From a virus: a stretch of 64,000 nt of DNA. Shown in pieces: positions 3 to 19,068 of this stretch; position 1 is the stretch's first letter; each line of letters starts with the position of its first letter. The DNA is taken from UHGV virus genome UHGV-0144373. One strand, written 5' to 3'. A program made the position numbers and the translations under genes. Under the pieces are notes generated by a model, which saw only the letters and a program-made list of their open reading frames with translations, was not told the DNA's origin and made no database searches.

Positions 3-5395
<5,393 letters not shown>

Positions 5396-15116: not shown

Positions 15117-15307
15117 TACTCAATGTCAATAAGTTCTTGTGCAATGCTTTTCAGATTACCTTTCAAGAAAACCTTCTCAGAACCTGAAAGAGATGAGTTG
15201 TCAATTAACCTGTTCATCCTCTCAAACAACTTCTGTTTACGATTCTTGATAGTTTCCTTTGAAGCACCTTTCATCATTGCTGCATGGGTTCTTCCACGGT
15301 GGCTCAT
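15098..15307 (-). CDS. hypothetical protein
   Basis: 69 aa basic ORF. Confidence 0.35.
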   Translation of the reverse strand: MSHRGRTHAAMMKGASKETIKNRKQKLFERMNRLIDNSSLSGSEKVFLKGNLKSIAQELIDIEYWRHQK

Positions 15308-15347
15308 AGCAAACTCCTATATAAGGTACTCTTCCCTGAGCACCTTG

Positions 15348-15914
15348 TCAACTTAGTTTTGCAAACTCTCCGTGGAGTTTTACAGCAGCTTCGCAGTAAG
15401 CTTTATGGGCTTCTTCTGGTGTGTCATAGTAACCTAATGACATCTTTTTACCTTTATAGCTTATTTGTGCAACCCACCTACCAGACTTCTTCTTCAGACT
15501 TACACCCTTATAGCCTGATTTATTGGTGGATAGTTTGCTTTTATTCCAAGCACTTTGGTAGTCATCTGCTTCTCTTAAGTTTACAATCCTGTTATCAAGG
15601 GAGTCTCCATTAATATGGTCAATAACACCTTTCGGTAACCTACCATACACGTACAGCCATGCGAGTCTGTGTGCTTTATGTGCTTTCTTGTCAAAATAGA
15701 TAGTAATCTGCTTATGACCAGTTGAGTCAATCTGGATGCTCCCCGCTACCTGTCCTGCGTACTGACTATTAAAAACTTTAACAGCCTTTGAGTCGCCATC
15801 TCTACGAAGCCAAGTAAAGACCCCTGTTTCGGGGTCATAGTGTAGCAGTTCCTTTAAACGTTTTTGTGTAATCATTTTAATACCATCAATGTACCTCATA
15901 CCAACTTTTACCAA
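15348..15914 (-). CDS. HNH homing endonuclease with AP2-type DNA-binding domain
   Basis: HNH core DHINGDSLDNRIVNLREA and an AP2-like segment YKGVSLKKKSGRWVAQISYKGKKMSLGYY; overlaps the 3' end of the polymerase second segment. Confidence 0.7.
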   Translation of the reverse strand: MVKVGMRYIDGIKMITQKRLKELLHYDPETGVFTWLRRDGDSKAVKVFNSQYAGQVAGSIQIDSTGHKQITIYFDKKAHKAHRLAWLYVYGRLPKGVIDHINGDSLDNRIVNLREADDYQSAWNKSKLSTNKSGYKGVSLKKKSGRWVAQISYKGKKMSLGYYDTPEEAHKAYCEAAVKLHGEFAKLS

Positions 15915-16440
15915 CCTTACCAGTACCAGTTACAAGTGTATCTTTCTTCAAACCTAGATTCTTAGAGGCTTGACCATACATCCAGTCAGTGATTGCTTTA
16001 ACCTCTTGAGTCATTGTCTCTGGGCATTCCCAACTATTTTCATCATGGTATGCCAGTAAGAGTCTAGCACCAATTGCTGGTTTTCGTCCATTTAATTTTG
16101 TCAACCCTTCTTCACATGCTCTTCTACAAGCGAGGTTAATTGCCTCGTTCTGAATCTGGCTTTCCGAACCCATGAGCAAATAATTCAATAACTTATGTGG
16201 AGATTTACACCACAACCAAGCTCCAGCAACCTTTACAAAACCCCCTTTAGAGATTGCAGCAGTTTTGCCAAACACCTCTTCAAGTGCCTTCTTAGTTGCT
16301 TTGTAGTCAGCTTCCAAGTCATCTAACAGCTTCTTAATCTTTGGCAAACGCACAAAGTAAGTCTGTTTAGTTAATGCACCCTCCTGAGTAGTGGCTGCCT
16401 TAATAGTTTTAGCAAACTTCTCATCACCTGCACCGAACAA
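15886..16440 (-). CDS. DNA polymerase (family A, T7 gp5-like), C-terminal segment
   Basis: Begins within motif B (LFGAGDEK; the ORF-track M is a TTG codon); contains SPHKLLNYLL, motif C LLAYHDE and the C-terminal WYEVH, all collinear with the T7 gp5 C-terminus. No Shine-Dalgarno upstream. Confidence 0.8.
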   Translation of the reverse strand: MFGAGDEKFAKTIKAATTQEGALTKQTYFVRLPKIKKLLDDLEADYKATKKALEEVFGKTAAISKGGFVKVAGAWLWCKSPHKLLNYLLMGSESQIQNEAINLACRRACEEGLTKLNGRKPAIGARLLLAYHDENSWECPETMTQEVKAITDWMYGQASKNLGLKKDTLVTGTGKVGKSWYEVH

Positions 16441-16449
16441 TACATCTGG

Positions 16450-16757
16450 TCAATACACTCGCAAGGTGTACCAGTTCTCTTATGAACTTCTCCGCATTTC
16501 TACGGAGTGTCGGACTATATCACGTAGTAATAATACTACCGTTGCACTTGGGAATGGTCATTAGCTTACCACCCTACTCTACTCAGTTCATACATTAAGT
16601 ATGCTTTTCGATAGTCTCTGAACGTTTCTCTGTTAGGAACCTCTATAGTTATGTTATTTGCTTTAGGAGTCCTAACAGAGACTTCGCTGCTGATTACCAT
16701 ATCTTTACAGACTTAGGCTTCCAGCAATTCACAACGTTTTACATGCGCCACTGACGC
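16450..16757 (-). other. intervening sequence splitting the DNA polymerase gene (candidate group I intron)
   Basis: About 300 nt with stop codons in the polymerase frame, lying between KAKNGIY and LFGAGDEK of motif B. Exact boundaries unresolved. Confidence 0.4.
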
Positions 16758-18896
16758 ATAGATACCATTCTTAGCCTTCTTACGGCCTTTGCTAATCTCA
16801 TGAAGAAGATTCTCATCCTGAGTAGCTCGACAAGTCAAGATGTCCTGCTCATCATTCAAGCTAAAGTAAATACTATTCAGTGTATGTGCATCAGTCCCTG
16901 AATAGACAACGTACAGGTCATTCTCAGAGTCATAGCGAAGGTACTTATCAATATCTGGGTTGAGATACTCATCAAAGTGTTTACAGTAATAGCGTCCGTC
17001 TTCTTGACGAATAAACTCAATCTCTTCTTTACCTTGCGTTACCGCTTTGGTGAACTCTTTATCACCCATAAAGTCACAAAGGAGCACTAGCTGGGCTGAG
17101 TTCATATCAACGGAGACTACGTTGGTTCCCTCTTCACAAATCCACACCTCCCTCATAGGTGCTCCATAGACAGCAGCACCAGACGGTACGTTTACAATAC
17201 CATATTGTGTCATACGTCCAGTTGAAGTACCAAACACCATTGCACCAGCACTAAGGCGACCATCTGGACGAATCTGGTTCAACCAACCTTTTTCATCATC
17301 CTTTGAGTTCTCAATAGTTCTGCGTCGGTGCATCAAAGTATAGTACTTAGCAATCTTCTGTCCAAGTTCCCCTTCAATCGTATCATAAGATGATTCAGTA
17401 AGCTTTGGTGAAGTACGGATTAAGCAAGGCTCAAGCAAATCTGTGTACTTCTTCACAGACCAGTTATGCTCAATGTACTGTACACCTTCATGCTCAACAT
17501 AGCTCAAACCACACCGCTCAACCATTTCCTGCCACTTAGGATGTTTTGTAATCATCTTTTTATTGTCTTTGAAACGACAAACTTTGACAGGGCGACCGTC
17601 TGAGTCTTTCTTATAGTTCCAGTCATCTGGAATCCAACCAACTGATTTCAAGTAATCTTTAACAACTGCTACCTGAGTCATACGAGAAACTTCAAACTCA
17701 ATTGGTGTATATGGTGCATCAATCAAACCCGTGTAGCGACTTGACTCAAGCTCAAAGTGGTTAACAACGTGGCTGTTATAGTACTTCACAGTTTTGACTG
17801 TTTTTACTGGCTTCCAGTCTTTGCATTTCTTACCAATCTTTGCGTTCAACTCATTGCAAATTGCACGAGCATCCTTCATTGCTACAAAACCTTCCTTGTA
17901 CTCTTCACCAGTTACAGAGTTGGTTGGTGTATAGCAATTCCGCTTCTCAATGTTAAAAATCTTTGTAGTTGGCTTACCAAATGGTTTGATTTCATAAGTC
18001 TGCATCTCACCATTACGTACCTGCTGACGATACTTTGTCTTAGGGTACTTGGTAATTCTCTTCAGTCCATCTGCATGACCGAATGTTTCAACATACTCAT
18101 TCCAAGCTTTTGCAAACTCTTCTCCAGTGACTTTACCTTTGGTCTTAATAGTTGGAGGTAGATGTGGTTCAACCTCTGAAGCAAGCTCATTAGTCAACTT
18201 GTCAAGTTCCTTTACATGGAACTCCATAAGCTCTTTATCAGCTTTCCAACCATTGATAGCTTGCTGGCTCATCCAGAAAGATGTTTCTTTAGCTCGCATG
18301 TAAGTCTCATAAGTGTCTATACCACACTTCTTAAGCTTGAGATACTCGTTATCAAGTGCCCGTTTAGTTTTGGCGTTAATACGAATATCTTCTACAACAC
18401 GAGTGAAGATTTCTGCATTCCACACACCCCAATGTTCAATCTCTGGTTTACGAACACCAACACGAGCACCCCATGCAGCCAAACCATGAGCACCTTTATA
18501 ACCCTTTGGAGTTGGTCTATCCATCCACTGAACACGAGACTGGATAAGAGAGTCCTGAAAGAAATTACTCCACGGTTTACACTTTGGATTATCAAAGTTC
18601 CATAAATCAGGTGCAATGTGATTGAAAACCCACCAGTCATAACCTAGACCATTATGGATGCAAAGACGTTTTGCCTTTAACGCAAACTCAACACCTTCAC
18701 GTAAGCCACCCTTAATGTACTTAGTGTACTTGTGACCGAGGATAGGCTCATCTGTAAAGACCCATACAGGCGGCTCTTCATCGTCAGATTTATAATCTGC
18801 GAAAGCCATTACGTGCACTTTAGTGAACTCAAGGAGTAAACCATCAGTTTCTGTATCACCAACCAAATGTAAGTTTTTAAAATCTACGTTTTCCAT
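16713..18896 (-). CDS. DNA polymerase (family A, T7 gp5-like), N-terminal segment with 3'-5' exonuclease domain
   Basis: Exo motif DTETDG, motif A VVSVDMNSAQL and the start of motif B RKKAKNGIY, followed by 14 out-of-frame codons and a stop. Start set at the ATG at 18896, which has GAGGGAG upstream, rather than the ORF-track ATG at 18926. Confidence 0.85.
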   Translation of the reverse strand: MENVDFKNLHLVGDTETDGLLLEFTKVHVMAFADYKSDDEEPPVWVFTDEPILGHKYTKYIKGGLREGVEFALKAKRLCIHNGLGYDWWVFNHIAPDLWNFDNPKCKPWSNFFQDSLIQSRVQWMDRPTPKGYKGAHGLAAWGARVGVRKPEIEHWGVWNAEIFTRVVEDIRINAKTKRALDNEYLKLKKCGIDTYETYMRAKETSFWMSQQAINGWKADKELMEFHVKELDKLTNELASEVEPHLPPTIKTKGKVTGEEFAKAWNEYVETFGHADGLKRITKYPKTKYRQQVRNGEMQTYEIKPFGKPTTKIFNIEKRNCYTPTNSVTGEEYKEGFVAMKDARAICNELNAKIGKKCKDWKPVKTVKTVKYYNSHVVNHFELESSRYTGLIDAPYTPIEFEVSRMTQVAVVKDYLKSVGWIPDDWNYKKDSDGRPVKVCRFKDNKKMITKHPKWQEMVERCGLSYVEHEGVQYIEHNWSVKKYTDLLEPCLIRTSPKLTESSYDTIEGELGQKIAKYYTLMHRRRTIENSKDDEKGWLNQIRPDGRLSAGAMVFGTSTGRMTQYGIVNVPSGAAVYGAPMREVWICEEGTNVVSVDMNSAQLVLLCDFMGDKEFTKAVTQGKEEIEFIRQEDGRYYCKHFDEYLNPDIDKYLRYDSENDLYVVYSGTDAHTLNSIYFSLNDEQDILTCRATQDENLLHEISKGRKKAKNGIYASVAHVKRCELLEA

Positions 18897-19068
18897 TTTT
18901 ACTCCCTCTAAAATCATTAACCACATACATTACTGCAAAAAATTATAAAAAGCAAGTTGACAATGTACTTGACAAGGTGTTAATCTTTGCGAAGTGGGTT
19001 TTTACTTAAAAGGTTACTTAACAGTTTAACTATACAGATACTTTAAAACTCTTAAAAGATTATTTAAT

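Follow-up and report, generated by a model that had tools for sequence, protein, structure and literature searches.

Group I introns are known from several positions in the family A DNA polymerase genes of phages, those of SPO1, Bastille and Pf-WMP3 lying at E. coli Pol I position 674, that of phiL7 at 676, and those of PhiI and W31 at 881 (PMC3428280). Within the genus Felixounavirus, the genome announcement for phage Meda reports a polymerase gene broken by an intron that has no endonuclease (PMC6486253)—the GenBank record for Meda joins the polymerase coding sequence (CDS)—and the endonuclease VII-type genes of JH2, EC6 and FSL SP-010 have been listed as intron-encoded (PMC6083498). The genome paper for Felix O1 states 'introns absent' (PMC3185647), correctly for that phage, as its polymerase gene is uninterrupted. 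Here we describe the equivalent locus in a 64,000-nucleotide (nt) stretch of viral DNA, UHGV virus genome UHGV-0144373 (the whole of which we refer to as 'the window'), belonging to a Felixounavirus, i.e. a Felix O1-like myophage. The family A polymerase gene of the window is split inside motif B, and we hold it to be highly probable that the interruption is a group I intron—a non-autonomous remnant, spread horizontally—and that the HNH-AP2 gene adjoining the polymerase is independent of it. An intron in the Felixounavirus polymerase is already on record; the window presents an ordinary case of it, and not a new principle.

The introns of Meda, JH2, EC6 and FSL SP-010 occupy the same gene and the same nucleotide position as that of the window, and have the same ribozyme, with 96–100% identity across the core. 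That of Meda is also without an open reading frame (ORF), but belongs to a 268-nt class, whereas the window carries a 311-nt class with a long P6a stem and an endonuclease 'scar'; those of JH2, EC6 and FSL SP-010 are of a ~805-nt class, in which the endonuclease gene is intact where the window has only the scar. A similar range of forms is reportedly found elsewhere: Foley et al. (2000; cited in PMC11878797) are said to have described deletion derivatives of a group I intron within the lysin gene carried by Streptococcus thermophilus phages, full-length and shorter ORF-less forms likewise occurring in the phage population, although gene, host and endonuclease all differ from those of the window. 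The introns of SPO1, Bastille, Pf-WMP3, phiL7, PhiI and W31, by contrast, sit at the other sites listed above rather than in motif B and encode HNH enzymes, whereas the enzyme of the Felixounavirus family is of the endonuclease VII type. Non-autonomous introns beside a free-standing endonuclease gene are also known from the mobE/nrdB intron of T4 and the F-CphI/psbA intron of cyanophage S-PM2 (PMC2790892, PMC3984707); unlike in those pairs, the window's two elements assort independently of each other among genomes, and the conversion tracts of the HNH gene miss the intron.

The region from 15300 to 19000 of the window matches 262 phage records, with Salmonella phage S19cd as the best match (95.9%). 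That its polymerase gene is divided within motif B by an intervening sequence had been proposed in an initial annotation; the ORFs are as described there, all on the minus strand, and the features of the gene are as follows:

16713..18926, minus strand: ORF of 737 amino acids (aa), containing DTETDG, with the C-terminal end ...RKKAKNGIYASVAHVKRCELLEA followed by a stop
15886..16440, minus strand: ORF of 184 aa, with a TTG start, LFGAGDEK..., LLAYHDE and the C-terminal end ...WYEVH
16754..18896, minus strand: DNA polymerase exon 1, coding for DTETDG (the 3'-5' exonuclease motif), for motif A and for the first half of motif B
16443..16753, minus strand: group I intron without an endonuclease ORF, 311 nt, starting CAGUGGCGCAUG... 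and ending ...ACCAGAUG, with its terminal G at 16443
15886..16442, minus strand: DNA polymerase exon 2, starting UA UUG UUC GGU..., which completes a Leu codon and continues as LFGAGDEK

The insert, first put at ~300 nt, is real; its length needs revision, the gap between the two ORFs being 272 nt and the intron itself 311 nt (16753..16443). Exon 1 begins, in the annotation of relatives such as REP5 and S19cd, with the ATG at 18896 (MENVDF...), the ORF staying open upstream to 18926, and its 3' end reads ...AAU GGU AUC UAU GCG U with the last nucleotide at 16754, as set by the P1 U·G pair (see below) and by intron-less alleles. From here the reading frame enters the intron and reaches a TAA (16715-16713) 14 codons beyond the final residue of motif B in exon 1; together with a length of 311 nt, which is not a multiple of three, this rules out an intein, as had been concluded before from the in-frame stop. 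The Ala codon that follows RKKAKNGIY is exonic and the next codon, for Leu (U/UA), is divided by the intron. The apparent TTG 'start' of the second ORF, rightly noted to have no Shine-Dalgarno sequence, is itself a motif B leucine codon. Exon 2 supplies motif C (LLAYHDE) and the C-terminal His, and closes with the stop codon at 15888-15886.

Excising exactly 311 nt yields a frame of 909 aa, or 899 aa from the ATG used in relatives. The predicted spliced RNA has ...UAUGCGU joined to UAUUGUUC..., i.e. ...GGUAUCUAUGCGU to UAUUGUUCGGUGCAGG..., and the predicted junction peptide is NGIYALLFGAGDEK; the polymerase would read ...RKKAKNGIYA-L-LFGAGDEK..., or ...RKKAKNGIYALLFGAGDEK..., with NGIYALLFGAG at the join. 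On Pfam DNA_pol_A (cut-off 34.3), the product of this join reaches 56.9 bits over a single stretch, residues 681-897, that crosses the junction, whereas the two halves taken separately score 17.9 and 27.4 bits, both below the cut-off. Having passed this threshold, and with motifs A, B and C all present, it is a family A DNA polymerase. The description 'T7-like' holds in that the motif B region aligns to T7 gp5, but is otherwise loose: Taq aligns with the stretches around motifs A and C, and the similarity to either enzyme is distant (E about 1e-3 to 1e-4). In the motif B alignment, query residue 154 corresponds to T7 517, hence placing R opposite R518, and the divided Leu codon is equivalent to residue 528 of T7 gp5; taking T7 Y526 to correspond to Pol I F762, the insertion site would lie at about Pol I codon 764. 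In the intron-less relatives DaR-2019b, UAB_Phi87 and Felix O1, and in 25 loci from IMG/VR, the same residues follow each other with no gap, and the alignment with such homologues, which the initial annotation had suggested, fixes the insertion site to the exact nucleotide.

The covariance-model search suggested in the same place identifies the insert as a group I intron. The Rfam model RF00028 matches at 16765..16490 on the minus strand over its full length (model positions 1-253 of 253), with 63.3 bits against a gathering score of 50 and E = 1e-13, and is the sole Rfam match in a scan of the entire 64-kb window; as this E-value applies to the whole window, the split is not a chance feature. 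With the rules for group I splice sites obeyed and intron-less homologues collinear, the earlier proposal of a group I intron is upheld. Its elements, taken from the Rfam alignment and a hand-built structure checked pair by pair, are these:

16742..16760, minus strand: P1, 8 bp, in which UAUGCGU plus the first intron nucleotide, C (16760-16753), pairs with the guide sequence GGCGCAUG (16749-16742)
16512..16736, minus strand: catalytic core, with P3, P4, P5, P6, P7, P7.1, P7.2 and P8
16736-16730 with 16546-16540, minus strand: P3
16726-16721 with 16693-16688, minus strand: P4
16717-16697, minus strand: P5, with a GUAA loop
16687-16686 with 16623-16622, minus strand: P6
16628..16681, minus strand: P6a, a perfect 12-bp stem (16681-16670 with 16638-16627) with a 31-nt loop (16669-16639)
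16618-16612 with 16517-16512, minus strand: P7
16603-16589, minus strand: P7.1
16573-16553, minus strand: P7.2
16539-16524, minus strand: P8
16448..16507, minus strand: peripheral 3' helices, namely P9 (16507-16490, GAAA tetraloop), P9.1 (16488-16473) and P9.2 (16472-16448)

At the 5' splice site, U16754 (the U at -1) forms a wobble pair with G16748; P1 is supported by reading of the sequence, by the pair table and by its appearance in the minimum-free-energy fold. A possible P10 of 5 bp can be drawn between intron nt 1-5 (CAGUG) and the first five nucleotides of exon 2 (UAUUG, 16442-16438), and at the 3' end P9.2 is followed by AUG, the intron then closing with the terminal G at 16443; since the P1 U·G pair, this G and P10 set its ends, the intron extends from 16753 to 16443. 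The junction UAUGCGU^UAUUG is common to all 12 intron-containing alleles and complementary to the guide sequence, whereas most intron-less alleles have GCA CUG CUG or GCC CUG UUA at the site, encoding the same residues with no pairing to the guide.

All of the core helices from P3 to P8 form, including the P3/P7 pseudoknot, and the segments GAUAUAGUC and AGACUA agree with the RF00028 consensus. The Rfam alignment has no P2, and P7.1 and P7.2 lie between P7 and the 3' strand of P3. Across 12 distinct variants, the 82 pairs of the hand-built model are paired in 99.8% of cells, a share that falls to 28–45% once the partners are displaced by 1-3 columns. P8 and the P6a base show compensatory changes from U-A to C-G, and changes on one side only, of a kind compatible with wobble pairing, are found in P3, P7.2 and P8, those in P3 and P7.2 including G·U to G-C. 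An unconstrained minimum-free-energy fold recovers P1, P3, P4, P5, P6, P6a, P7.1, P7.2, P8, P9 and P9.1 (z = -3.9 against shuffles). P9, P9.1 and P9.2 are unchanging in all 12 variants, which leaves them without evidence from covariation, P9 and P9.1 having that of the fold. The match in sequence and structure, like the insertion site, is a direct observation, from which we infer splicing.

Its wider distribution points to where the intron of the window came from. The same intron, at the same nucleotide, is present in about 97 of roughly 260 GenBank relatives within Felixounavirus, in the three sizes already mentioned: ~805 nt, 310-311 nt (as in the window) and 268 nt (short P6a), the last of these also exceeding the RF00028 gathering score, at 59.2 bits. 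In the ~805-nt class the P6a loop holds an ORF of 160 aa, which matches Pfam Endonuclease_7 at 71.4 bits and belongs to the endonuclease VII/DHHRN family of homing endonucleases. Introns that contain such ORFs, namely those of VSe11, YpP-G and WS1160, give no Rfam match at the gathering score, presumably because the ORF breaks up the model; we do not take this as evidence against them.

The P6a loop of the window reads GGACUCCUAA followed directly by AGCAAAUAACAUAACUAUAGAG, so that what flanks the endonuclease ORF on its 5' side runs straight into the final codons of that ORF (Ser-Lys-stop) and its 3' flank. On the 3' side of this junction, the loop (AGC AAA UAA + 13 nt) agrees at 22/22 nt with L036 (IMG/VR UViG_2706796285, VpaE1-like), and the junction itself falls within GACU(A)CCUAA, an imperfect direct repeat found at either end of the ORF. 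Given the retained ORF codons and the position of the junction in a direct repeat, the 311-nt form looks like a deletion derivative whose endonuclease gene has been lost. The family distribution and the scar are observed directly; the direction of change is a reading of them. L036 itself has a 780-nt intron with the endonuclease VII-type gene frameshifted and cut to 101 aa, and resembles a halfway stage in the decay of the endonuclease.

The endonuclease with which this intron has historically been associated is the endonuclease VII-type gene found inside the intron of sister phages, apparently lost from the window copy. No gene of this type occurs elsewhere in the 64-kb window, and the window's intron is without a homing endonuclease gene of its own, its only frame being an ATG-initiated ORF of 44 aa (16566-16700, minus strand) that lies wholly within the ribozyme core, from P5 to P7.2. 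We judge this frame spurious, as it has no Pfam match and falls in a region deleted or disrupted in the 268-nt variants; it is the likely source of 'hypothetical protein' calls in GenBank relatives.

Comparison of intron and exons suggests how the intron has moved. Its 3' 185 nt are 96–99.5% identical between the window and other intron-bearing phages, and its first 84 nt 98–100% identical among the forms with a long P6a stem, whereas the flanking exon sequences (555–600 nt) are just 76–85% identical between the same phages, S19cd excepted. Because the intron is 96–100% identical where the exons are 76–85%, we read it as having spread horizontally. The exon flanks of the window agree with intron-type alleles only at -32, -23, -2, -1, +2 and +3; beyond -38 and +32 they match the intron-less, UAB_Phi87-like alleles at 95–98%. 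With the matches thus confined to the vicinity of the site, the intron appears to have entered by gene conversion with a very short tract, a footprint of the kind expected of homing.

The surrounding segment is itself of mixed ancestry. Over the 3' third of the polymerase gene, a stretch that opens ~300 nt upstream of where the intron sits and closes at the stop codon (15886-17050 in the window), the Felixounavirus loci that we compared (L001-L040) form a directly visible recombination mosaic with 72–97% nucleotide identity. The nearest relative differs segment by segment, and the breaks between segments fall at the intron and at the HNH gene. Most Felixounavirus genomes share 94–98% identity over the N-terminal two thirds of this gene. 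Two intron-less loci, L017 and L018 (IMG/VR UViG_2706796097 and 2706796096), have UAUGCG UUG/UUA CUG at the site (locus positions ~3457-3500), and in this resemble the spliced intron-bearing alleles, unlike the other intron-less ones; they may represent precise intron loss or a natural variant of the homing site.

Taken as a mechanism, our reading would run as follows. The polymerase exons and the intron would be transcribed as a single pre-mRNA; the ribozyme would fold, and an external guanosine would attack after U16754, held in P1 by the guide sequence; the released exon 1 would then attack after G16443, with exon 2 aligned by P10, joining the exons into a single 899/909-aa polymerase. The endonuclease gene would have been deleted between the short direct repeats, leaving its last three codons behind, and the intron would have arrived in the window allele by horizontal gene conversion, with an exon tract of at most about 37 nt upstream and 31 nt downstream.

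Several points weigh against parts of this account. The literature searched contains no splicing experiment for Felixounavirus. Covariation is slim, since the ribozyme hardly varies (mean column identity 94%): changes on both sides are limited to 2 pairs, a count no higher than in a shuffle control, where 239 of 500 shuffles reach it. For the identification as group I we therefore lean above all on the score of the covariance model and on the exact geometry of the splice sites. Phage introns of subgroup IA2, described for PhiI, W31 and Pf-WMP3, have P7.1 and P7.2 and often lack P2 (PMC3428280); read by eye against that description, the window's intron may be assigned to an IA2-like subgroup. 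The direction of the deletion is drawn from parsimony on the retained codons. Lastly, the co-conversion tract depends on two neutral markers, at -32 and -23, as -2, -1, +2 and +3 are constrained by P1 and P10.

The gene next to the polymerase had been noted as consistent with endonuclease-driven mobility of the intron:

15348..15875, minus strand: free-standing HNH-AP2 homing endonuclease gene, 175 aa from a conserved ATG (MITQKRLKELL...), within a longer ORF at 15348..15914

Its product matches Pfam HNH_3 (56.4 bits) and AP2 (50.1 bits), and it is the single copy of its type in the window. The overlap with the 3' end of the polymerase gene that had been attributed to it arises from the upstream extension of the ORF, and disappears with the conserved ATG at 15875, which lies past the polymerase stop codon (15886-15888), 11 nt downstream of it. 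At this spot, right after the stop, an HNH gene is present, absent or replaced among otherwise syntenic genomes. In HNH-less relatives (for example, L004 positions 3358-3410), a sigma-70-like TTGACA...TATACT, read by eye, follows the polymerase stop directly, and the HNH gene, where present, has gone in between the two, separating the stop codon from this promoter-like element; because HNH-less genomes have the element in that place, the gene can be assigned an insertion site of its own.

We cross-tabulated intron and HNH status in 40 loci and compared the insertion-site sequences. All combinations of intron type and HNH type occur. The window's HNH type follows intron-less polymerases in six loci (L003, L011, L017, L018, L024 and L025; 76–95% aa identity, five of the six at 86–95%), and intron-bearing polymerases in other loci have other HNH types downstream, or none. 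The most telling case is L003, which has the HNH gene (94% aa identity) and no intron, and whose 75 nt around the insertion site are the same as in the HNH-less L014 and L016; given this identity, its enzyme evidently does not target the intron site. Between window and L003 the HNH gene is 95.6% identical and the adjoining 257 nt of exon 2 only 73%, and from this fall in identity it follows that HNH conversion tracts stop short of the intron, 557 nt away. With no linkage in either comparison, we reject the HNH-AP2 gene as encoding the intron's homing enzyme, contrary to the tie to intron mobility drawn initially; on these sequence comparisons it is a putative independent, free-standing homing endonuclease gene that occupies an insertion site of its own, at the stop codon of the polymerase. 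The nuclease activities of this product and of the endonuclease VII-type one are predicted.

An arrangement that would keep the two elements together is a two-part mobile unit, in which an ORF-less intron and the adjacent HNH-AP2 gene move by trans or collaborative homing, the enzyme cutting intron-less genomes either close to or exactly at the site of the intron, or else where its own gene inserts, with repair then copying both elements into the recipient. The 557 nt that separate them fall within the co-conversion of up to ~2 kb reported for T4 homing, the same layout is functional in the T4 mobE/nrdB intron (PMC2790892) and the cyanophage F-CphI/psbA intron (PMC3984707), and some HNH gene stands downstream of every 311-nt and 268-nt ORF-less intron sampled. 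We nevertheless regard this as unlikely, given that the same HNH type is found behind intron-less polymerases and that introns with the endonuclease VII-type gene occur both with and without an HNH gene. Against a collaborative pair stands L003: it has the HNH gene, no intron and an unaltered site, and an endonuclease that cut the intron site there would cut its own genome. For a trans homing pair of the mobE/nrdB type, the free assortment of the two elements is joined by the drop to 73% identity in exon 2 beside the HNH gene, similarity around that gene giving out in the final ~250 nt of the polymerase gene; trans homing as in T4 may take place now and then, but the data do not suggest it. 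Slightly less probable again, in our estimation, is that the 311-nt ORF-less form is ancestral and that the endonuclease VII-type gene entered the P6a loop later. It is accepted that mobile introns arose when free-standing endonuclease genes invaded introns without an ORF (PMC3984707), and such genes usually settle in terminal loops, of which P6a is one. Against this order of events, the window's loop retains the AGC AAA UAA and 13 nt found in L036, with its junction in a direct repeat—the pattern of a deletion—and a frameshifted endonuclease intermediate exists.

Two further explanations dispense with splicing, and to both we give very little weight. That the polymerase is made as two assembling polypeptides (82 kDa and 20 kDa) would accord with most GenBank records, which annotate two 'DNA polymerase' CDSs, and the exon 2 ORF is formally startable at its TTG. 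The break, however, falls inside motif B and would part residues that belong, throughout the family A polymerases, to a single helix; the TTG encodes a conserved motif B Leu, with neither a Shine-Dalgarno sequence nor an in-frame ATG in exon 2; the gap is filled by a complete group I ribozyme; and about 60% of relatives encode a single uninterrupted protein. Nothing specific speaks for a dead intron or an assembly artefact that leaves the polymerase a pseudogene, other than that the intron has lost its endonuclease gene. About 97 plaque-forming phages, each sequenced independently, have the insert at the same nucleotide, all of its core helices are intact, and this polymerase is the only one seen in a conserved replication module. 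The account of a group I intron, left as a non-autonomous remnant and independent of its HNH neighbour, is the one that we retain.

For annotation, the practical consequence is that most GenBank records of the genus give the polymerase as two proteins plus stray 'hypothetical' ORFs; recognising the intron restores the correct single product of 899/909 aa, which is of relevance to phage taxonomy, pangenomes and therapeutic-phage dossiers. The genus also offers a natural series in which the endonuclease gene is intact, frameshifted, deleted (311 nt) or further trimmed (268 nt), with possible precise loss at its end, and this series of size classes could be used to study the life cycle of a homing intron.

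Related insertions occur close by in other phages. The intron of Yersinia phage YpP-G (L041, ~2319-3015) lies 11 nt, and that of the LUZ24-like Pseudomonas phage WS1160 (L042, ~2331-3007) 6 nt, upstream of the equivalent of the window site; in both phages, exon 2 is annotated too short in GenBank. These introns are likewise in DNA that codes for motif B, and their endonuclease VII-type genes are 46–52% identical in aa to the Felixounavirus one. Relative to T7, insertion is after nt 2 of the F524 codon in YpP-G, nt 1 of Y526 in the LUZ24-like phage and nt 1 of codon 528 in the window, i.e. at three sites within 11 nt. The introns of YpP-G and the window have the hairpin sequence AGUUCAUAAGAGAAC in common; BLAST finds no overall nucleotide similarity between the window intron and those of YpP-G and the LUZ24-like phages. 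It is conceivable, if rather doubtful, that motif B DNA is a shared landing zone for one endonuclease VII (DHHRN) lineage in Felixounavirus, Berlinvirus and LUZ24-like phages, and that the Felixounavirus remnants are carried along by HNH-AP2; were this true, the locus would lay out, as a natural series, how a mobile intron is born, decays and is rescued.

Two observations concern matches outside these groups. Stretches of 50-70 nt from intron nt 3-72 (16682-16751) are 80–87% similar to sequences in Staphylococcus phage 6ec-like, Erwinia phage MIF8 and an uncultured crAss-like phage, presumably from further group I introns that have core sequence in common. GenBank MG065664.1 and MG065668.1, entered as 'Campylobacter phage A132/A126', are about 90% identical over 3.7 kb to the region described here, which is that of an enterobacterial Felixounavirus; they include the 268-nt intron, and are probably mislabelled or contaminant assemblies.

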